Sequence record: OR896157.1
Source of the DNA: a phage
Length of the DNA stretch: 64,000 bases
Direction: 5' to 3' (one strand)
How positions within the stretch are numbered: position 1 is the first letter of the stretch; each line of letters starts with the position of its first letter. This document shows, in pieces, positions 1 through 9,038 of this stretch. A model generated the notes under the pieces. It did no database searches, was not told the origin of the DNA, and saw nothing but the letters and a program-made list of their open reading frames with translations. The translations under genes and the position numbers were made by a program.

Positions 1-141
1 TTCTTCTTTAGAAGGTTCTTTGAACTTGCTATATACTACCATAGCGCCATCAGCGTATTGTTCAAAGTTTGCTTCTTCTGCCGATACGGGCGAGATTAAA
101 GTGGCTGCAAATAAAATCGCAGCCAATGCACGTAGAGTCAT
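1..141 (-). CDS. hypothetical secreted protein, 5' part only (gene runs off window start)
   Basis: ATG at 139-141 (minus); open to position 1; N-terminus MTLRALAAILFAATLISPVSA looks like a signal peptide. Confidence 0.3.
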   Translation of the reverse strand, partial: MTLRALAAILFAATLISPVSAEEANFEQYADGAMVVYSKFKEPSKEE

Positions 142-148
142 AAAAGCC

Positions 149-361
149 TCAGCGTTGTCCTGTATTAAGTTTGTGCTGAAGAACAGCCTTAACTTTATCG
201 AGGTATTTTTGCAGCTGGCGTTTACGCAAATAGTCTGGGCGTGCACCATGCTGGCGAAACTCTTCGTTTAGACTTGAGATAGCGTGGCCAATCTCGCACT
301 TAATTTCTTCCAGTTGAGATACACCAAGATTACGAAGTTGCTTATCGTTCAAATGCTTCAT
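149..361 (-). CDS. hypothetical protein
   Basis: 70-aa ORF in minus-strand early gene string. Confidence 0.4.
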   Translation of the reverse strand: MKHLNDKQLRNLGVSQLEEIKCEIGHAISSLNEEFRQHGARPDYLRKRQLQKYLDKVKAVLQHKLNTGQR

Positions 362-395
362 ACATACCTCATTAGTTAGTAATAGTATTTATAAA

Positions 396-411
396 GGGGA
401 GCATGCTCCCC
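396..411 (-). terminator. stem-loop ggggagcatgctcccc followed by T-run on minus strand
   Basis: perfect 16-nt palindrome immediately downstream of ORF 421..792. Confidence 0.45.
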
Positions 412-420
412 AATTTAACT

Positions 421-792
421 TTAGTCCCACAAAATTTGGCACAGACCTTTCTCATACTTACGAGCAGCCTTTTCGTCCCAATTATAGTCCGTATCGTTTC
501 TCAACGAGCGTTTGATTTCCATCTTGTGAAATACACGAGGAATCGGTGAAGCATAGCGCATCCAGCGCAGAGTCTTCCAGAATGAATCACGATGGCGCTT
601 TTTCATCATAGAAGCAAGCTCTAACGGTCTTTCCATGTTTTCTTTAATTTGCTTATCGATATATTCATTACGCCAAAGAGAAGTTCTCTCGTAGTCATAA
701 TCTTTGATATAAGCAAATGGGTTGTTCTTCTGGTCGTGCCATTTAGAAGAAGTGGTTACGTGCCAGCCTTTACGACGAATAGTTCTTGACAT
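421..792 (-). CDS. hypothetical protein
   Basis: 123-aa ORF, basic, no recognised motif. Confidence 0.5.
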   Translation of the reverse strand: MSRTIRRKGWHVTTSSKWHDQKNNPFAYIKDYDYERTSLWRNEYIDKQIKENMERPLELASMMKKRHRDSFWKTLRWMRYASPIPRVFHKMEIKRSLRNDTDYNWDEKAARKYEKGLCQILWD

Positions 793-848
793 ATCTACCT
801 CTTGAGTTAAAGTACCTCAATGGTAGTAAAATCCTGCTTTAAAATATT

Positions 849-959
849 TCATGGTGATACTTTCCCTTCAATTAAAATCTTTAAGAATCCAAGTAAAGCT
901 GCTATGATAAACCCAGCAGCTGGAAAAGCGAATAACCAAAATAATACATCAATAATCAT
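849..959 (-). CDS. small hydrophobic peptide (putative membrane protein)
   Basis: hand-translated MIIDVLFWLFAFPAAGFIIAALLGFLKILIEGKVSP; ATG overlaps upstream stop (ATGA); below ORF-track size cutoff. Confidence 0.25.
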   Translation of the reverse strand: MIIDVLFWLFAFPAAGFIIAALLGFLKILIEGKVSP

Positions 960-1087
960 CCTAATGTTACCTTGCATTTGCATTTTGGACATTCAACTTC
1001 TTTTACGCGAAGACGCTTTGTCTTCGAGCGCGGCGCTGTATCATGGTCATAAACATGAAGACATCGATAGCAAATGACTAATTTCAT
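956..1087 (-). CDS. small zinc-ribbon-like protein
   Basis: hand-translated MKLVICYRCLHVYDHDTAPRSKTKRLRVKEVECPKCKCKVTLG; CxxC..CxxC spacing. Confidence 0.3.
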   Translation of the reverse strand: MKLVICYRCLHVYDHDTAPRSKTKRLRVKEVECPKCKCKVTLG

Positions 1088-1114
1088 CAGTAGATAGCCT
1101 CGAAGATTTTTACA

Positions 1115-1699
1115 CTATTCATAAATACCAGTCATTTCACACCAATGTTTTCGACAGAGTGAGACGTATTTGTCTTCACCACCTAATTCAATAGTATCAC
1201 CTTCTACGATAGCATTTCCTTCTTGGTCAACACGAGCAACCATTGTTGCTTTACGACCACAATGGCAAACACCCTTCAGTTCGCAGAGTTTATCTGCAGT
1301 TGCCAGAAGAGCGGCAGAGCCCTTAAATAGGTTACCACGGAAATCTGTACGAAGTCCATAGGCCATCACTGGAGTATTATAGAGGTCAACAATTTGACAT
1401 AATTGAAGAACGTGAGACTGGGTCAAGAATTGAGCTTCGTCAACAAACACACAGTGAATATCTTTTTGAGTCTGCGCCCATTTGAAAAACTCAAGAATGT
1501 CCATGTCTTCAGTGATGGTATTTGCTTCAGCATGTAGACCAACACGAGATACAACTTCATTTGCTGAATCTCGCGTGTCAATAGCTGGCTTAAGAATGAG
1601 CGTTCCCATTCCACGCTCTTTATAGTTATGAGCTGCTGTAAGCAGAGATGCTGATTTACCAGCATTCATTGAAGCATAGTTAAAATAAAGCTGAGCCAT
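1115..1699 (-). CDS. tk: thymidine kinase
   Basis: P-loop MNAGKSASLL, C-terminal CxCGxxA...RxxWC zinc motif typical of TK; start taken at MAQLYF (ATG overlapping upstream stop, TAATG). Confidence 0.85.
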   Translation of the reverse strand: MAQLYFNYASMNAGKSASLLTAAHNYKERGMGTLILKPAIDTRDSANEVVSRVGLHAEANTITEDMDILEFFKWAQTQKDIHCVFVDEAQFLTQSHVLQLCQIVDLYNTPVMAYGLRTDFRGNLFKGSAALLATADKLCELKGVCHCGRKATMVARVDQEGNAIVEGDTIELGGEDKYVSLCRKHWCEMTGIYE

Positions 1700-2154
1700 T
1701 ATTCGCCGTCCCAATCAACTACAATAATATCAACATTTGGAGTGAACATATTAATTAATGCTTCAATCTTTTCCCAATCGCCACCAGCAATGCCGGCGCC
1801 AATGCGAGGAATATAAACATCCATTTTGAACAAAGAACCAGATAAGAATTTGTCCATTTTCTGAAAAGCATTAATTAATGCGCCATAATCAAGATTAGGA
1901 CCTGGTTCGTATTGAGTGTAAAGATTAAAGCAAGCACCACCATTTAATGCTAACGCTAAGCTAAAAGTTCCAAGCTTTTTATGGTCAGCATAATCTGTAG
2001 CTGCTTTGTCAGTTGACAAAATAACCGGAAATTTTGAAGCAAGTTGTCCTGCTACGCCAGCACCCATAGTATGGAAACAGTTACAACCATGAGCAATAAC
2101 TTTGCCTTCAGAATATAGCTTAACAATATCGCCTTTAATGTAATTTACAATCAT
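1699..2154 (-). CDS. macro-domain protein (putative ADP-ribose binding/hydrolase)
   Basis: GDIVK...IAHGCNC...GAGVAGQL and IPRIGAGIAGGDWE resemble macro-domain glycine-rich loops. Confidence 0.5.
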   Translation of the reverse strand: MIVNYIKGDIVKLYSEGKVIAHGCNCFHTMGAGVAGQLASKFPVILSTDKAATDYADHKKLGTFSLALALNGGACFNLYTQYEPGPNLDYGALINAFQKMDKFLSGSLFKMDVYIPRIGAGIAGGDWEKIEALINMFTPNVDIIVVDWDGE

Positions 2155-2570
2155 CTTTTCCTCAACTCAGGTATGCTTTTAAATTGATAAGTAGCGTAGT
2201 TTTCAAATTCATCGTAAACTCGTGCATAAATTTCTTCGCCACATGTTAACTTTTTGAAAGACTTCAAATCTCTTTCAGAAAAATCTATCGATACTCCGTT
2301 GATGATTCCGGAGGATTTGGCTCCGCAACCTCGAAAATGAATTGAACCACCCGGAATAATAGCTTGGTCTTCTTTGTTAGAGTAATTGTAAAATGATACA
2401 CCAAAAGCTTTCTTTTTAGGATAGTAAGAAACTTCAATATTCTTTTTAAACGAACCAGTTGTTTCAACTAGCTTACCATCAATAGCGTAGATATTATCAG
2501 GATAGCCTGGGAGTTTTTCCCAGGCATTTACCGATAATGGTAGAGCTAGCAGAAATGCTGCTATTTTCAC
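2151..2570 (-). CDS. hypothetical secreted protein
   Basis: N-terminal signal peptide MKIAAFLLALPLSVNA. Confidence 0.45.
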   Translation of the reverse strand: MKIAAFLLALPLSVNAWEKLPGYPDNIYAIDGKLVETTGSFKKNIEVSYYPKKKAFGVSFYNYSNKEDQAIIPGGSIHFRGCGAKSSGIINGVSIDFSERDLKSFKKLTCGEEIYARVYDEFENYATYQFKSIPELRKR

Positions 2571-2893
2571 TTAGATAATCCCGCTATATACACCCTCAAT
2601 AACGTATCACGATATTCTTCGCATACGTTTACATCAGGTGCATTATCACACAACGACTCAAGGTCTTTAGCCTTACGAGCCACCAAGGTAGACCATTTAA
2701 AGCGGCTACCAGAATCAGTTTGTCCTTCAGCATAAGTTTTGTCAAAGTCAAATGACAAAATGTTCAAACACTCTGTATTAGTCTTAGTGCAGAATTGCTT
2801 TGCTAATACTAAAGAATCATCTTGTTCAGTAGCAAAATCAACTTTACACCCAGATAGAGCAAAAACTATTAGAAGTACAAACAACTTTTTCAT
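2567..2893 (-). CDS. putative lipoprotein
   Basis: signal peptide with lipobox LSGC. Confidence 0.45.
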   Translation of the reverse strand: MKKLFVLLIVFALSGCKVDFATEQDDSLVLAKQFCTKTNTECLNILSFDFDKTYAEGQTDSGSRFKWSTLVARKAKDLESLCDNAPDVNVCEEYRDTLLRVYIAGLSK

Positions 2894-3441
2894 TATTCCA
2901 CCGTATAATGAAGTATTTTACGAGATTTCAAGTAATTCGCCTTTGCTAATACTTCAGAGGCGTACTTGTTGCCGGCTTTCCACTTGTTTCCTGCGTTGTA
3001 TGATGCTATGGCTTTTCTCATATCACCGTTATGACGGTCTAACCAATAACTTAACTCAATATACGCCCAAGCGGCGGAGTGCTTCCGGCTCTTTGCCATG
3101 CGGATGATTTCAGCGTCTGTCATTGACCATCCGGCTTGTTTAACTCTTTCCCTAAGTGTAGGAAGATAATTTTGAAATATCCCGTAAGCTTGATGCCCAT
3201 GTTTACCAGTTGTACGTAAGCCTGCAGAACTTTCCTGCCAGACTAGTGCAGCCATAATGTAACCAAGTCCATCATTGTCATAGCGCTTACTATGGTCTTT
3301 ATACTTCCCATTCTTCTGAAATTGTTCACCAAACGAATATGCGTATTGCAAATTGTCGAGTTGGACATTACTGAAGGTGTGTTCGGACGCGAATCCTAGA
3401 GACGAAACTAGGAGTAACGCCGCGCATAGAGCTTTTTTCAT
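2893..3441 (-). CDS. putative lytic transglycosylase (SLT-like), secreted
   Basis: signal peptide; WQESS...AYGIFQ resembles SLT catalytic ES..GLMQ motif. Confidence 0.45.
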   Translation of the reverse strand: MKKALCAALLLVSSLGFASEHTFSNVQLDNLQYAYSFGEQFQKNGKYKDHSKRYDNDGLGYIMAALVWQESSAGLRTTGKHGHQAYGIFQNYLPTLRERVKQAGWSMTDAEIIRMAKSRKHSAAWAYIELSYWLDRHNGDMRKAIASYNAGNKWKAGNKYASEVLAKANYLKSRKILHYTVE

Positions 3442-3459
3442 GTTTACCTCAAATTAAAG

Positions 3460-3924
3460 CTATAACTTGATAATCTTTGTGCTGATTTTACCTTTCAAGC
3501 GTTTATCATTTACGAATGCCATGCGACATTGCATGGAGTGACCGCGGAACGGATGTTCTGGGTTTGGTAGAGAGACAGTCATTCCAAGCCATAGAGTACC
3601 ATCTGTGATTTCCAGACGTTGAGGTCTGTACTCTACTTCTGGGTCAATTTCCGATGGGTCAATTGGAAGCATCGGCATTTCTAAGAACTCGTGAATTTCT
3701 GTTACATGGTTGTGTACTTTGTGGAACAGAGCGAACACATACTCTTCATCAATTTCTCGCTGGATAGCACGGTCCAGGAGGTGATTAGAATATTTAATAA
3801 AGAAAGCTGGAATACCAGCAGATGCGCAAGCACTACGTATAGAATCGTTTACACTCTTGAATTCAGTCTCAAAGCGGCGACGTAGCTTGTTTCGGCGGAT
3901 GAATACTTCTGGGTTAGTTGTCAT
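3460..3924 (-). CDS. regB: RegB-like endoribonuclease (tentative)
   Basis: about 154 aa, N-terminus MTTNPEVFIRRNKLRR; position between tk and e matches T4 order; start moved to ATG 3922-3924 behind AGGAG RBS. Confidence 0.45.
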   Translation of the reverse strand: MTTNPEVFIRRNKLRRRFETEFKSVNDSIRSACASAGIPAFFIKYSNHLLDRAIQREIDEEYVFALFHKVHNHVTEIHEFLEMPMLPIDPSEIDPEVEYRPQRLEITDGTLWLGMTVSLPNPEHPFRGHSMQCRMAFVNDKRLKGKISTKIIKL

Positions 3925-3980
3925 TTTCAATCTCCTTTGTTGATAGGGCTATAGTATCATAGCCCTTGGAGAAAGTAAAT
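3921..3980 (-). promoter_or_regulatory. conserved ~60-bp cassette, copy A (hairpin agggctat...atagccct plus AGGAG RBS)
   Basis: near-identical to 21113..21180; sits immediately upstream of regB-like ATG. Confidence 0.5.
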
Positions 3981-3982
3981 AG

Positions 3983-4255
3983 TCAGTAGTTATGGTCATC
4001 GTAGAACACTTGAAGCAGAACATTGCTACGCAGCTTCTTGGTGTCCGCGATGCGTTGACGGAGCTTTGAGATTTTGTCCTGAACAGCATTGAAAGCATCA
4101 GAAGTCTTAGGGTCATGAAGACCCATAGACTCATCCACAAGCTGCTCCATCTTTTCTTCCATAGCATTGATAGCTTCGGAGAAAGACTCGGAGACTTTGT
4201 TGCGGATAGACATTAATACTTTTCTTCTGGTTGAAATACTGAACGGCATGCCCAC
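3983..4255 (-). CDS. hypothetical protein
   Basis: 90-aa ORF; true start may be internal. Confidence 0.4.
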   Translation of the reverse strand: MGMPFSISTRRKVLMSIRNKVSESFSEAINAMEEKMEQLVDESMGLHDPKTSDAFNAVQDKISKLRQRIADTKKLRSNVLLQVFYDDHNY

Positions 4256-4494
4256 ATAGAAGCTTCTTTCAAACGATCAATTGCATTACGAATCTGAGTG
4301 ATTCTAGAATGAGCTAGATCGAATTCTTCGTCGCTTATAGTGTCAACATCCAAGTCCATGTAAACTTTGACATGCTCTTCTTCTAAGGCTTTGAAAATCA
4401 AGCCAAGACGTAATTCAGCATCTTTGATAGCGTTCACTTTACCAATTTTGTCATCAGTGTGTGGTTTATAGCCTTTGATATCTTCAATTGACAT
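4213..4494 (-). CDS. hypothetical protein
   Basis: 93-aa ORF, acidic. Confidence 0.45.
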   Translation of the reverse strand: MSIEDIKGYKPHTDDKIGKVNAIKDAELRLGLIFKALEEEHVKVYMDLDVDTISDEEFDLAHSRITQIRNAIDRLKEASMWACRSVFQPEEKY

Positions 4495-4856
4495 TACATT
4501 TCCTTAGTGAAAGTGCGTGAAATAACGTCGCGCTGTTGCTCTGGAGTTAGAGCATTAAAACGAACGGCATAGCCAGAAACACGAATAGTCAGCTGAGGAT
4601 ATTTTTCTGGATGTTGAACTGCATCTTCTAAAGTTTCTTTAGACAGCACGTTCACGTTCAAATGCTGTCCACCTTCAACTTTAACTGTAGGCTTGGTTTC
4701 AATTCCAATTTCACGAGATTCAAAACCAAAGAAAGTTTCTACATCAACTATAGAATCTTCTGGCAAAGTTTTAGATACAATCACACGGGCTTTATCACCA
4801 TCTTCAAGATAAATTGTGCCTTTATGAGTGCCGTTCAAAATTTGATATGCGTTCAT
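4494..4856 (-). CDS. hypothetical protein
   Basis: 120-aa ORF, stop/start overlap with neighbour. Confidence 0.5.
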
Positions 4857-4865
4857 AGTAGTTCC

Positions 4866-5102
4866 TTATGGGTATTGAATTTCTTCGTCAGTCTCTTTAT
4901 CATACTCACGAATTTTGATTGGTTCATTAATTCCGTAGCCACTTACAGTAAGACCAGTTTTAGCGTCTTCCCACTGTTTGGTTTCTTCATTCCACACACC
5001 GTTAGCATGCGCTTCCATTAAATCCTGTTCGCCTTGGTTTGAAAACCAGCCGCAGAAAGATTCAACCAGGTGGTCGGGGATGTCGATAATAATTTGCGCC
5101 AT
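4866..5102 (-). CDS. hypothetical protein
   Basis: 78-aa ORF. Confidence 0.4.
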   Translation of the reverse strand: MAQIIIDIPDHLVESFCGWFSNQGEQDLMEAHANGVWNEETKQWEDAKTGLTVSGYGINEPIKIREYDKETDEEIQYP

Positions 5103-5395
5103 GTTGGCTCCAAAGAAATGACCTTGCGGTCGTAAGTAATTAAGCTTGAAGTTTTAATGCCTTTGCATGGGCCAGAGATAAACTCTACTTCAAACCATGG
5201 ATGCTCATTCATCAGACCCACATCTGGCGAAGTGCAGAGGAACAACGAGCCTTTAAAAGGCCCATCTAAAAATCGATACAGCTTTGGCTCAAGAACTGCC
5301 CCATCTGAAAATTTGATATGCAGAATATTAATCAAAGATTCTACATTACATTTTCCAGTAGAACGCAAAAAGCGGATATATTCACCTGTAGTCAT
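5018..5395 (-). CDS. hypothetical protein
   Basis: ORF 5018..5437 trimmed to internal Met because a GGGCC-UUCG-GGCCC hairpin lies at 5401-5414. Confidence 0.35.
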   Translation of the reverse strand: MTTGEYIRFLRSTGKCNVESLINILHIKFSDGAVLEPKLYRFLDGPFKGSLFLCTSPDVGLMNEHPWFEVEFISGPCKGIKTSSLITYDRKVISLEPTWRKLLSTSPTTWLNLSAAGFQTKANRI

Positions 5396-5400
5396 TCTAA

Positions 5401-5414
5401 GGGCCCGAAGGCCC
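5401..5414 (-). other. C(UUCG)G stem-loop gggccuucgggccc
   Basis: 14-nt perfect hairpin just downstream of ORF 5434..6024. Confidence 0.5.
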
Positions 5415-5433
5415 TTATTAAAATTTTCTTTCA

Positions 5434-6024
5434 TCATTGCATTCCTATCACAAAGAATAATGGAATCATCTCTTCACCAGTAACGTGTGATTGATGAACA
5501 CATGCATAAAATGGACCTTTGAAATGGGCTTCATAGAACTTTTCCATTTCAGGGAGTTTCATTGGTTCTTCTATAATATACAAGATTCTGTTAAGCTTTC
5601 GACCGCGGGCCTTTGAACCACCATCGCTCAGAAAACTTCGCACAGTGTCCATGATAATCATGCGTTTGGCTTCATCTGGATTTGCTTGATGAATGAGTTC
5701 TTTCTCATAACAAGCTCTTATTAGTTTTGCGGTTTCTTCTGAATTTCGTTGATGAGTGCTAATAATCCATACAGTTCCGCCATCATGTAACCAATCTGCT
5801 GCAAATTCGGCAACAGCTTTAGTCTTGCCTGATTGACGTCCGCCATCGATTTTTAGCGTAGCATATTCGCGTAGAATATCTATAGGAGTGTAATGACTTT
5901 CTTTGAGGATTTCTATACAATCATCAGCACGGATTTTGAAGGCGTGCATCAGGGATAGATATGGGGCAAATAGAGATTTTATTTTCATTTTGTTTACCGT
6001 TAGTGAGGGCCTTCCATGGCTCAA
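5434..6024 (-). CDS. P-loop NTPase-like protein
   Basis: Walker A GGRQSGKT; alternative start at MKIKSL (5988). Confidence 0.45.
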   Translation of the reverse strand: MSHGRPSLTVNKMKIKSLFAPYLSLMHAFKIRADDCIEILKESHYTPIDILREYATLKIDGGRQSGKTKAVAEFAADWLHDGGTVWIISTHQRNSEETAKLIRACYEKELIHQANPDEAKRMIIMDTVRSFLSDGGSKARGRKLNRILYIIEEPMKLPEMEKFYEAHFKGPFYACVHQSHVTGEEMIPLFFVIGMQ

Positions 6025-6176
6025 GAATTTCCATCAGCTAGCGGGATTGCTAGGACCCTGATTGTAACTGGCTTTACCGCACTTGGGCTCGACCTTTTCA
6101 CAGGTACCAGAAGCTACTTCACTCAGAGGACACGACGTTCATGAGGAGAGGTCCAGGTTGGCTTTTTGATTGAAGA

Positions 6177-6473
6177 TTAACTAAACGGGTCGTGAAGCTT
6201 ATTACCAATACGACGGAACACTTTAGCTGCAAATTTATTGGAAGGGTTATCAACCATAATTTTGCGCATGTGACCGGTCGCGACTGTTCGAGCAGCCTTA
6301 TAACCAGCAATGTTATCTTTCAAAGTAATTCGACCTTTTCCTTTAGGGTCGTCAATGGTCACTTTGTAAGTTCCCATATCTTCGCCAGGCTTAATTTCTT
6401 CAATCCAGATATAACCACCTGGAACTCGCTTTTGTTCAGCTGCTTCATTTAAAAATTCATTATAGGTTTTCAT
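6177..6473 (-). CDS. internal head protein (IPII/IPIII-like)
   Basis: [11 protein letters not shown] capsid-targeting leader as in T4 internal proteins; start taken at this Met. Confidence 0.55.
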
Positions 6474-6954
6474 ATGCTTTCCATGTTCCAACTCGGAATG
6501 TTTCAATTACTCGTTTAGCACGATTTGGTGTCTGACGATACCACTTGGAATTAGCAAGCTCTTTTGCAGCCGCTTCCCATTGTTTTGATTTAAGCAGACG
6601 CATTGATGCTGGGAAACCAGCTACACCTGTTACGCCCATCTGAAACACCATATTAATAAGTGCAGCACGACGAACTCCATCAAGTACATCATATACTGGT
6701 TTTAATACAGCATTTCCGAGAATCCCTCGAGTTGCTTTATCGACGTCTTTCGCAAAAATAGCTTCTGCTTCAGCTTTTGTGATTTGACCATTACATGGAC
6801 GCCCCACAAGCTTATCAAGTTCTCGTTTAGCAGCATCAAGAGAAGGGTCACGTGTCAAAAGGTGACCGATACCGATTGTCCAAAAACCTTCAGTATCTTT
6901 ATAGATTTTAGAATCGTATCCTTCATCGATACGAAGCATGCCAAAAATGTCCAT
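6460..6954 (-). CDS. e: endolysin (T4-type lysozyme)
   Basis: 164 aa, very close to T4 lysozyme along full length (LRIDEG...YKDTEG...TIGIGHLL...NRAKRVI). Confidence 0.92.
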
Positions 6955-6987
6955 GAGGACCTCCTATCAGTTGATAGGAGTATTTAT

Positions 6988-7467
6988 TTAGCATTCCCAA
7001 AGAGCGTCTTGAATGACCTTTGGATAAAGTTTCTGCATAACAGAGAAAAGACTTGGGCCCATTACTACATTCCACATACGCGGCTGAATCAAAGCAAACG
7101 CATCGATTTCCGGAAATTCGTTTCCATCTTCGTCCGTATGATATGCCGTGCAAATACAATCTCTGAATTGAGAGTGTTCCACTGGGAACGGATATTCAAA
7201 GATATGTATATCTTTATTGCTAGCATAATCATGTCGGCCTAGGTCCACTAGATGTCCTGGATTATAATCAACGAATCCACTTTCTTCTCTGCATTCACGA
7301 ACTGCAGCTTCAAGAGGAGATTCACCTGGCTCGATATGACCCTTTGGAATGTCCCAGCGAGATGGTCCACCACCTAGTCCAGAATTAGTTACTCGACCCA
7401 TGAACAGTTCTTTGTCTTTTGTAAAGAACAGAATACCAGCAGAGACTTCTTTAATTTTCTTACTCAA
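6988..7467 (-). CDS. nudE: Nudix hydrolase
   Basis: Nudix box GHIEPGESPLEAAVRECREESG; position next to e. Confidence 0.75.
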   Translation of the reverse strand: MSKKIKEVSAGILFFTKDKELFMGRVTNSGLGGGPSRWDIPKGHIEPGESPLEAAVRECREESGFVDYNPGHLVDLGRHDYASNKDIHIFEYPFPVEHSQFRDCICTAYHTDEDGNEFPEIDAFALIQPRMWNVVMGPSLFSVMQKLYPKVIQDALWEC

Positions 7468-7694
7468 ATTTCACCCCAACTAATTTCACGAAGTCTTTGC
7501 ATGATTGACTCAACTTCTTCAATCATATCTTCATCGCAGTCAAATGAACCTTCTACCATCCAATCACTAATTGGAGTGAACATTTCAAGGTCCGTAGATA
7601 GACGATTACGAATATCATCTACTGATTCATTGTCGTTGAAGGAGTACAGGTAAGAATCAGCCGATTCAGATTTAACAAATACCGCAATACTCAT
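7464..7694 (-). CDS. hypothetical protein
   Basis: 76-aa acidic ORF. Confidence 0.45.
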   Translation of the reverse strand: MSIAVFVKSESADSYLYSFNDNESVDDIRNRLSTDLEMFTPISDWMVEGSFDCDEDMIEEVESIMQRLREISWGEI

Positions 7695-8002
7695 ACCTTT
7701 TCCTCTAAGAAGTCAGACAGTTTAAAATCTTTACGGTCCATCAGACCATAGTGAATGTTCTTCAGCGTATCGTACATGTCCCAGTACTTTTCTTTTAGCA
7801 TATTACCAAATGGTGGAATATAAAGCTTATCCCATTTAGCAGCTAACTCACCATTGCGCAGTTCTCCTGGAACATTTTCAACGATACGTAAAACTTTAGT
7901 TGCAACCTCATAATCGGATGGCGGAATCCATCCCCAATTATGATGTACTGAACCGTTAATTTCGCCATTCAGCGAAGTAAAAATCGTAGCTGGACAACTC
8001 AT
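7691..8002 (-). CDS. hypothetical protein
   Basis: 103-aa ORF. Confidence 0.45.
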   Translation of the reverse strand: MSCPATIFTSLNGEINGSVHHNWGWIPPSDYEVATKVLRIVENVPGELRNGELAAKWDKLYIPPFGNMLKEKYWDMYDTLKNIHYGLMDRKDFKLSDFLEEKV

Positions 8003-8361
8003 CGTGTACCTCTAATACCTTGAATAAAGTTTAAAGCATCTTCACCTGGTGGAACTTCTTTAGACTTAGATTTTCGTTTAAAGAGTTTCCACTCTTTCTT
8101 TTGGTCGAAGGTTCCACGTTGAACCTGCCCAAGATAAAATAACCACTTTCCAATCCAGTAGAATGGAGTTAAAATGCCAGCCATCCAGCCAACAAAAAGT
8201 AATTGTTCACCATACAAAGGACTAAAGAAGTACAATCCCCAATATGTTCCAAACCCATAAAGCATTGTGAACATAAAGCAAATAATTATTGTACAAACAG
8301 CCCATCCAAAATTATCATATGAACCAGCATCTTTGAATCCGCGAAATAATGTTTTAATCAT
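7999..8361 (-). CDS. hypothetical membrane protein
   Basis: two or more hydrophobic helices. Confidence 0.45.
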   Translation of the reverse strand: MIKTLFRGFKDAGSYDNFGWAVCTIIICFMFTMLYGFGTYWGLYFFSPLYGEQLLFVGWMAGILTPFYWIGKWLFYLGQVQRGTFDQKKEWKLFKRKSKSKEVPPGEDALNFIQGIRGTR

Positions 8362-8717
8362 CGTTTAATCCTGCATCTGGAGATAAAGTTCTCTAAATTT
8401 TGTTTGTCGTCGTAAATGGCCTTGGCTTTAGTAAACAATTTAACATGAATTTTACAATAACACCACTTAATAAAAGAAGCAACAACAATGACAACGAATA
8501 GTGAACATAATGCGCTTAGTGGTACAGAGATAATCATTTCAGCTACAAATCCATTGAACCACCAAACTACGAAATTTGATATGAAGACAGTAAGTATAAT
8601 AATTGCCCAACAAACGTCGTCTTCGTATTTCGACTTGAATCTATCTTCAATTTCTCGTTCAAAATGTCTGATATTCATTTTAGGATTGTATTTCATTTTT
8701 ACCTCGACATTCCGCAA
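8358..8717 (-). CDS. hypothetical membrane protein
   Basis: hydrophobic segments. Confidence 0.45.
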   Translation of the reverse strand: MRNVEVKMKYNPKMNIRHFEREIEDRFKSKYEDDVCWAIIILTVFISNFVVWWFNGFVAEMIISVPLSALCSLFVVIVVASFIKWCYCKIHVKLFTKAKAIYDDKQNLENFISRCRIKR

Positions 8718-9036
8718 TGAATTCTTCTGATTCTCGGATTATTCTATTACGAAGAACTTTAGCATTCTGTTCAGCTAAACGTTTATTTTCTGGTCGCATT
8801 ACCCACCAGATTGCAATATCATGAGTTTTAGGATGAGCCCAAATCATAAATGGAAGCGAAAGAAAAGTTGTAGTTGCAAACCAAATTGGAGCATATGGGT
8901 CTTCTAACAACAGTGACGGAATAAAAACGAAAAGTGACACAAATGTGCATAAAATTAAAACTGCCATTAAGTGCCAAAAGTCTACTTTAGCTTCAAATTC
9001 TCTTAATTTTAATTCAATCTTTGGCTGATATCCCAC
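8680..9036 (-). CDS. hypothetical membrane protein
   Basis: hydrophobic segments. Confidence 0.45.
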   Translation of the reverse strand: MGYQPKIELKLREFEAKVDFWHLMAVLILCTFVSLFVFIPSLLLEDPYAPIWFATTTFLSLPFMIWAHPKTHDIAIWWVMRPENKRLAEQNAKVLRNRIIRESEEFIAECRGKNEIQS

Positions 9037-9038
9037 GG

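Follow-up and report, generated by a model that had tools for sequence, protein, structure and literature searches.

The tk.4 gene of an Enterobacter Karamvirus encodes a macrodomain protein of predicted glutamine type that probably removes ADP-ribose from phage DNA

A 64,000-nucleotide stretch of phage sequence record OR896157.1 (hereafter the window) encodes at 1699..2154, on the minus strand, a single-domain macrodomain protein of 151 amino acids (aa) that runs from ATG to TAA and is related to the product of T4 tk.4, also called adfM. A Shine-Dalgarno-like GAGGA lies 4 nucleotides (nt) 5' of the tk.4 ATG (2159..2163), and the start codon overlaps the stop codon of an upstream 139-aa open reading frame (ORF) in an ATGA (2151..2154), both on the minus strand and both read directly from the sequence; this overlap suggests translational coupling of the 139-aa ORF and tk.4 within one transcription unit. 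At the other end of the gene, a TAATG junction (1697..1701, minus strand, by the same reading) makes base 1699 common to the tk.4 stop and the start of the thymidine kinase gene tk, which lies directly 3' (Pfam TK, E 1.7e-54). The tk coding sequence is 585 nt long (1115..1699), equal to the annotated length of tk in phages CC31 and PG7. Upstream on the same strand lies a regB homologue (Pfam REGB_T4, E 1e-69), and regB, vs.1, vs, the 139-aa ORF, tk.4, and tk form a tightly packed minus-strand block. The initial annotation, which had described a macro-domain protein next to tk in an early operon, was thus correct as to the reading frame and its neighbour.

The window comes from a T4-like Enterobacter phage of the genus Karamvirus (Straboviridae, Tevenvirinae). 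Over its first 6 kb, identity is 98.6% to Enterobacter phage vB_VIPECLUMC02 and 92-98% to PG7, CC31, and other Karamvirus members, and the nearest match to the 151-aa protein in a deposited phage genome shows 99.3% identity. The counterpart gene is annotated as tk.4 with the product "phosphatase" in CC31 and PG7 and as "macro domain-containing protein" or "hypothetical protein" in other deposited records. When T4 Tk.4 (NP_049723) was compared with the 151-aa protein, the two were 51% identical over 152 residues (E 1e-61), and a tblastn search of the window with T4 Tk.4 gave one significant match (E 7e-54; runner-up E 0.09). The proteins are similar in size (151 versus 155 aa), share the invariant motifs H-G-C-N, T-Q, and P-x-I-G-x-G, and are encoded on the prereplicative strand in a tk...vs-vs.1-regB block, with the order rI-tk-tk.4-vs-vs.1-regB kept between the two phages. 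The T4 order is tk, tk.1-3, tk.4, vs, vs.1, regB, whereas the window has tk, tk.4, ORF139, vs, vs.1, regB; without tk.1-tk.3, tk.4 abuts tk in the window, and an extra 139-aa secreted-protein ORF stands before vs. The two also differ in the second glycine-rich loop, which reads IAGGDW in the window protein (the family consensus) and IGKGNW in T4 Tk.4, and in host, the window phage being one of Enterobacter. These data identify the 151-aa ORF as the Karamvirus ortholog of T4 Tk.4 (AdfM, for anti-DarT factor macrodomain).

The macrodomain assignment was examined with sequence profiles and with structure prediction. The Pfam model PF01661 (Macro) alone scored the protein at 18.7 bits (E 1.7e-3), below its gathering cut-off of 22; the shortfall reflects the limited sensitivity of a single model, and a precomputed PF01661 match is present in many homologues. 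A single-sequence search of Protein Data Bank (PDB) sequences returned Poa1p (E 2.5e-9), BT1257, Mycobacterium tuberculosis (Mtb) DarG, and TARG1. A profile built from 67 Tk.4-family members, down to 40% identity, matched BT1257 (2e-18), TARG1 (2e-16), SCO6735 (5.5e-15), Poa1p (5e-14), Mtb DarG (6e-12), and Thermus aquaticus DarG (4e-10), and coronavirus nsp3 macrodomains at just 2e-3. The AlphaFold2 model consists of one 151-aa domain (predicted local distance difference test 95.5, predicted template modeling score 0.90) with the three-layer α/β/α fold and central mixed β-sheet that the macrodomain superfamily requires. Foldseek template modeling (TM) scores were 0.74-0.82 to Poa1p, BT1257, SCO6735, DarG, and TARG1. 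Structure prediction and search therefore returned a macrodomain and no unrelated fold, as the initial annotation had proposed from two glycine-rich motifs. Both motifs are present on the minus strand and, in alignments, fall on the loops that bind ADP-ribose in TARG1, BT1257, SCO6735, and DarG. Loop 1 (HTMGAGVAGQL, residues 28-38, 2041..2073) aligns with CRMGAGIAVLF of TARG1, GVMGKGVALQF of DarG, and GGWGKGFVLAV of SCO6735; Loop 2 (IGAGIAGGDWE, residues 118-128, 1771..1803), the diphosphate-binding loop, aligns with PRIGCGLAGGxW of BT1257 and SCO6735 and with PRIGCGLDRLQW of TARG1. In alignments to TARG1, DarG, SCO6735, BT1257, and Poa1p, each loop occupies its canonical position. From these results, we place the 151-aa protein in the ALC1-like (TARG1/DarG/SCO6735/Poa1p) class, apart from MacroD-type and viral macrodomains.

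The residues lining the predicted active site were located by a hidden Markov model (HMM) alignment to TARG1 and by a MAFFT alignment of nine macrodomains. H22-G23-C24-N25 (2080..2091, minus strand) form the end of the active-site strand, and T80-Q81 (1912..1917, minus strand) carry a Gln in the column that the catalytic Lys occupies in TARG1 and DarG. H22, G23, N25, C26, T80, and Q81 are invariant in all 67 family members, as are M30 and G33 in Loop 1; in Loop 2, I118, G119, G121, and W127 are each retained in 66 of the 67. T80-Q81 align with T83-K84 of TARG1, with the FPTK lysine of DarG (K80), with the corresponding lysine of the PhiKZ protein gp104, and with Q85 of SCO6735; N25 is equivalent to N22 of DarG, N23 of PhiKZ AdfM, and N27 of SCO6735; and A123 occupies the position of the TARG1 catalytic residue D125. 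BT1257 and SCO6735 likewise carry a Gln at the catalytic-lysine position. Based on these alignments, the Tk.4 family is predicted to be of the Gln type, like SCO6735, and not of the DarG type, because it has an invariant Gln81 in place of the DarG/TARG1 catalytic lysine.

The function of this Gln has been studied in SCO6735, a protein that cleaves thymidine-linked ADP-ribose off single-stranded DNA and shields Streptomyces coelicolor against DarT (PMC9411070). The Q85A variant of SCO6735 is inactive, N27S (which alters the Asn that locks Gln85) is nearly inactive, and the proposed mechanism is a water-mediated hydrolysis in which Gln85 places the distal ribose (PMC9411070). Synthetic substrates carrying ADP-ribose on thymidine are turned over by each of TARG1, DarG, and SCO6735 (PMC12879935), and SCO6735 is also active on RNA with ADP-ribose on uridine (PMC13036486).

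SCO6735 (PDB 5E3B) and BT1257 (PDB 2FG1/2AFC), both ALC1-like proteins of the Gln type, are ∼25-29% identical to the window protein. The window protein and SCO6735 have in common the His, the Asn, the Gln, and a PRIGxGxAGGxW signature. The Gly before the Gln in SCO6735 is replaced by T80 and its Loop 1 Trp by M30, positions at which the window protein resembles TARG1 and DarG; its short mobile loop and Gly23 also place it nearer to these two than to SCO6735. SCO6735 is, in addition, a cellular, DNA-damage-inducible protein and not one of phage counter-defence. Human TARG1 (OARD1; PDB 4J5R/4J5S), which is of similar length, was the top Foldseek match (E 7e-11, TM 0.78/0.84) and shares with the window protein the short mobile loop, the L-x-T-[K/Q] strand, and the RMGAG and PRIGxG loops. 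TARG1 strips thymidine-linked ADP-ribose from DNA (PMC12879935). Both of its catalytic residues are changed in the window protein (K84 to Q81 and D125 to A123), so the covalent lysine mechanism is inapplicable.

Membership in the DarG family was considered and rejected. With the NCBIfam DarG equivalog model NF048014, for which the cut-off is 250 bits, the protein reached 20.1 bits, and the PADLOC DarG profile gave a weak match (21.4 bits, E 3.6e-5). DarG of Mtb (PDB 5M3I) and T. aquaticus (PDB 5M31), as well as PhiKZ gp104, have the catalytic Lys in FPTK, whereas the Tk.4 family has Gln. With 151 aa against the 329-338 positions of DarG profiles, the window protein does not have the DarG C-terminal DarT-binding domain. 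No darT is adjacent to tk.4, whose neighbours are tk and the secreted-protein ORF, and no DarT2 homologue was found in the window at E≤1. Four findings thus speak against DarG: the low score, Gln in place of Lys, the absent C-terminal domain, and the lack of a neighbouring darT.

A second protein, PhiKZ gp104, also bears the name AdfM, assigned independently. In vitro it removes from DNA the thymidine-linked ADP-ribose added by DarT2, and the N23A change reduces its activity (PMC13309987). PhiKZ gp104 has the FPTK lysine and a match to Mtb DarG at E 9e-25; its match to the window protein extends over 26 aa alone (E 0.004). By this comparison the two AdfMs are predicted to be separate macrodomain lineages of the same fold class, and the T4-type and PhiKZ proteins appear to have converged on the same job.

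Functional evidence for the ortholog comes from T4. In a transposon sequencing screen on a host expressing DarTG2, tk.4 alone emerged as significantly required, and a clean tk.4 knockout made T4 sensitive to DarTG2 (bioRxiv 10.1101/2025.11.20.689424, a 2025 preprint); the authors named the gene adfM and proposed that its product removes DarT2-added ADP-ribose from DNA. T4 lacking adfA and adfN keeps its resistance to DarTG2, from which a further factor had been predicted (PMC11825919). The T4 genetics agree with the suggestion in the initial annotation that the protein serves anti-defence rather than housekeeping. Considering these data together with the active-site comparison, we propose that the window protein most likely removes ADP-ribose from phage DNA, by chemistry like that of SCO6735, and thereby defeats DarTG2, a reading to which we assign a probability of roughly 0.72. 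We infer both the enzymatic activity, for the window protein as for any Tk.4-type protein, and the relevance of DarTG2 as a target in Enterobacter hosts.

In the mechanism that we envisage, Tk.4 protein would be made from the packed minus-strand block before DNA replication. In a host that carries DarTG2, DarT2 would put ADP-ribose on the N3 of thymidine within TNTC motifs of single-stranded phage DNA, blocking replication. The two glycine-rich loops of the macrodomain would grip the ADP-ribose, and Gln81, held by Asn25, would position the distal ribose for a water-mediated hydrolysis that needs no lysine intermediate. Hydrolysis of the thymine-ribose bond would release free ADP-ribose, leave normal thymidine, and restore replication.

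The description of the operon as early holds through orthology. In T4, tk.4 falls in the early class by RNA and in the middle class by protein (PMC9697503 supplement). A σ70 consensus scan of window positions 1..7000 found 17 sites against 18 expected and is uninformative, and strict regular expressions for T4 MotA-box middle and early promoters had no match in positions 1..12000. By eye, a TGACTA-18 nt-TATGAT site is present 5' of regB, near 3950..3985 on the minus strand. We claim no promoter for the tk.4 block, and "early" therefore derives from the T4 data.

A second homologue of a T4 counter-defence gene is present in the window. The minus-strand ORF at 15507..15956 (149 aa) matches Pfam PF08010 (Phage_30_3, E 1.4e-59) and is ∼42-44% identical to gp30.3 of T-even phages; T4 gp30.3 is AdfN, a NADAR-type anti-DarTG1 factor. 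Each of the two T4 enzymes for the reversal of DarT modifications thus has a homologue in the window, a context that favours the proposed anti-DarTG2 role of Tk.4. The gp30.3/AdfN homologue of PG7 is encoded within the tRNA cluster region, and the T4 gene lies beside gene 30.

Several observations weigh against DNA de-ADP-ribosylation by the window protein. The support from T4 Tk.4 is genetic and comes from a preprint (bioRxiv 10.1101/2025.11.20.689424), and the window protein, at just 51% identity to T4 Tk.4, belongs to a phage of a different host genus. By MAFFT alignment, the Tk.4 family is without the catalytic Lys of DarG and TARG1, and the Gln-type mechanism derives from mutagenesis and molecular dynamics of one protein (PMC9411070). 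Relative to that protein, Gly23 replaces Val25 and the mobile loop is six residues shorter, without an equivalent of Lys89; the role of Val25 has been proposed to be exerted via its backbone carbonyl (PMC9411070), so the side-chain difference at Gly23 need not matter. When a plasmid collection was searched with a DarT2 query, 78 records matched, mostly from Bacillus, and Enterobacter was absent among the commonest names listed; this search is uninformative for Enterobacter DarTG2, as it covered plasmids alone. Close structural neighbours of the window protein include Poa1p, an ADP-ribose-1''-phosphate phosphatase, and the ancestral substrate of the family may be something else, because its cellular relatives show no link to DarT (see below).

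The alternative that survives best, which we nevertheless consider unlikely, is that Tk.4 hydrolyzes small ADP-ribose derivatives (ADP-ribose-1''-phosphate, O-acetyl-ADP-ribose, or toxins and immune signals derived from ADP-ribose) and would thus detoxify or quench NAD-derived metabolites of host defences instead of repairing DNA. Yeast Poa1p (PDB 6LFQ-6LFU) is the enzyme of this kind to which the window protein can be compared. Among the sites mutated in Poa1p, H23 corresponds to the invariant H22, S30 to T29 (41/67 members), and F152 to A123 (63/67); the replacement of F152 by Ala counts against a Poa1p-like activity. At the Gln81 position, Poa1p presumably has a Ser, which we take to be that of its LFTSS stretch. 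The substrate of Poa1p derives from tRNA splicing; we know of no counterpart of the pathway that feeds it in T4-like infection, nor of any pathway producing ADP-ribose-1''-phosphate there, which we also count against this alternative. The "phosphatase" label goes back to a remark in the T4 record ("A1pp phosphatase motif") and not to an assay. The sole functional evidence on the ortholog is a specific DarTG2 phenotype from a screen with a single significant gene. Related macrodomains often act on multiple substrates, and activity on small derivatives could coexist with activity on DNA.

The reversal of RNA or protein ADP-ribosylation rather than of DNA modification, for example of uracil-linked ADP-ribose on RNA, of marks made by other host ADP-ribosyltransferases, or of the modifications made by phage Alt, ModA, and ModB, is improbable in our judgment. 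No phage phenotype ties tk.4 to such substrates, and the DarTG2 phenotype of T4 Δtk.4 is explained by DNA repair alone. To our knowledge, arginine-linked marks of the T4 Alt/Mod type are not typical for this macrodomain class, a further point against this alternative. It does draw support from the related enzymes, since single-stranded RNA with uracil-linked ADP-ribose is a further substrate of TARG1, DarG, and SCO6735 (PMC13036486) and ADP-ribosylated protein a further substrate of SCO6735 and TARG1 (PMC9411070), and from the position of tk.4 near early genes with RNA-related functions, regB and vs among them. To date, adenine ADP-ribosylation of RNA of the CmdT type has been reported to be irreversible (PMC13036486), which counts against this alternative. 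DNA repair, reversal of RNA or protein ADP-ribosylation, hydrolysis of small derivatives, and non-catalytic inhibition of DarT2 could coexist in one enzyme.

It is very improbable that toxin binding or sequestration of the product, with no need for catalysis, is the main way in which Tk.4 neutralizes DarT2, or that Tk.4 is an ADP-ribose reader only: although the dead variants SCO6735 Q85A, DarG K80A, and TARG1 K84A inhibit DarT in vitro, with the strongest effect for SCO6735 (PMC9411070), and no catalytic mutant of T4 Tk.4 is on record, the equivalents of SCO6735 Asn27 and Gln85 are invariant among the 67 members, which argues for selection on enzymatic activity, and the DarT-binding domain of DarG is missing from the window protein.

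Tk.4-like proteins are also found outside phages. Relatives with the AHGCNC and PxIGxGIAGG motifs occur at at least 245 loci in species-representative bacterial genomes, across many phyla, and are ∼36-46% identical. The genes around 80 of these bacterial loci were surveyed, giving 123 immediate neighbours. The neighbours vary, with ADP-ribosylglycohydrolase (5) and NADAR (4) as the commonest families, and no recurrent DarT is among them. A Pseudomonas aeruginosa DarT2 query likewise had no match at E≤1 in 602 kb of flanking sequence, within 4 kb of the 80 loci. With no DarT beside these relatives, the lineage is unlike an orphaned DarG antitoxin, and an "orphan antitoxin" origin of the Tk.4 lineage was therefore rejected. 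The lineage looks like a stand-alone cellular ADP-ribose hydrolase that was acquired by phages.

In some of the bacterial loci another ADP-ribose-related gene lies directly 5' of the Tk.4-like gene: a NADAR gene in L020 (3520..4017) and L050 (3520..4014), and a gene for a DraG-like ADP-ribosylglycohydrolase in L070 (3061..3987), L072 (3057..3995), and L074 (3073..3999). The loci with such pairs are from Bacteroidales and Undibacterium, and no ADP-ribosyltransferase is nearby. These pairs may be small "eraser" cassettes.

Tentatively, Tk.4 might be a lysine-free lineage derived from SCO6735/BT1257-type enzymes that acts as a general eraser of ADP-ribose on the N3 of T in DNA and U in RNA, and possibly of small derivatives; as a whole this broader proposal is well short of an even chance. 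The part that concerns descent, a separate Gln-type lineage recruited from cellular enzymes, is favoured by the alignments and by the lack of DarT beside the 80 relatives. If the broad-eraser reading is true, one early gene would blunt several ADP-ribose-based defences.

The window gene itself is already known as tk.4/adfM, with near-identical copies in GenBank and a reported role for its T4 ortholog. By tblastn, the Tk.4 family is present in 2810 of 50,697 phage records; its carriers include T4-like phages, Felixounavirus, Vequintavirus and Ackermannviridae relatives, and phages of Pseudomonas, Vibrio, Acinetobacter, and Aeromonas. One further ortholog in a counter-defence family of ∼2800 sequenced phage genomes carries little weight alone. 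The T4 AdfM result does make the labels "phosphatase" and "hypothetical protein" outdated, and the name AdfM now covers both the lysine-using, DarG-like PhiKZ gp104 and T4 Tk.4 with its invariant Gln. The value added here is modest and lies in recognizing the Tk.4 family as a putative Gln type, distinct from the DarG-like AdfM of PhiKZ. The biochemistry of Tk.4-type proteins bears on the generality of the lysine-free mechanism of SCO6735 and on the substrate breadth of these enzymes.

Two deposited records with related sequence (the pair PP212877.1/PQ898399.1) have unusual features. "Aeromonas phage PS49", with Aeromonas hydrophila given as its host, is 94.9% identical to this Enterobacter Karamvirus region, and "Enterobacter phage SonariX" was deposited with a length of 248,734 bp versus ∼172 kb in relatives. 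In both cases the deposit may have been mislabelled or misassembled.

The three genes next upstream of tk.4 show features of exported proteins. The 139-aa ORF (2151..2570, minus strand) begins with an N-terminal signal peptide (MKIAAFLLALPLSVNAWE...) and has 4-nt overlaps with both tk.4 and vs; it matched PHROG 4957, a family of unknown function, and had no match in Pfam, NCBIfam, or PADLOC. T4 has no counterpart of it at that position. The vs homologue (2567..2893, minus strand; also in locus L002, 5387..5734, minus strand) has a lipoprotein-type signal start (MKKLFVLLIVFALSGC) with a weak match to Pfam LPAM_1 and another weak match to the Cor superinfection-exclusion PHROG. The start of T4 Vs is also signal-peptide-like (MTKILVLCIGLISFSASASA). 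Vs is described as a "valyl-tRNA synthetase modifier", and export fits poorly with the modification of a cytoplasmic tRNA synthetase. In the vs.1 homologue (2893..3441, minus strand), a signal peptide is combined with an SLT lytic-transglycosylase domain (Pfam, E 4e-5), and vs.1 is annotated as "hypothetical protein" in CC31, PG7, and T4 despite this domain. Beyond tk, the sole exact T4 late-promoter motif in the first 12 kb of the window, TATAAATA (386..393, minus strand), lies just 5' of an rI.1-like ORF (149..361).

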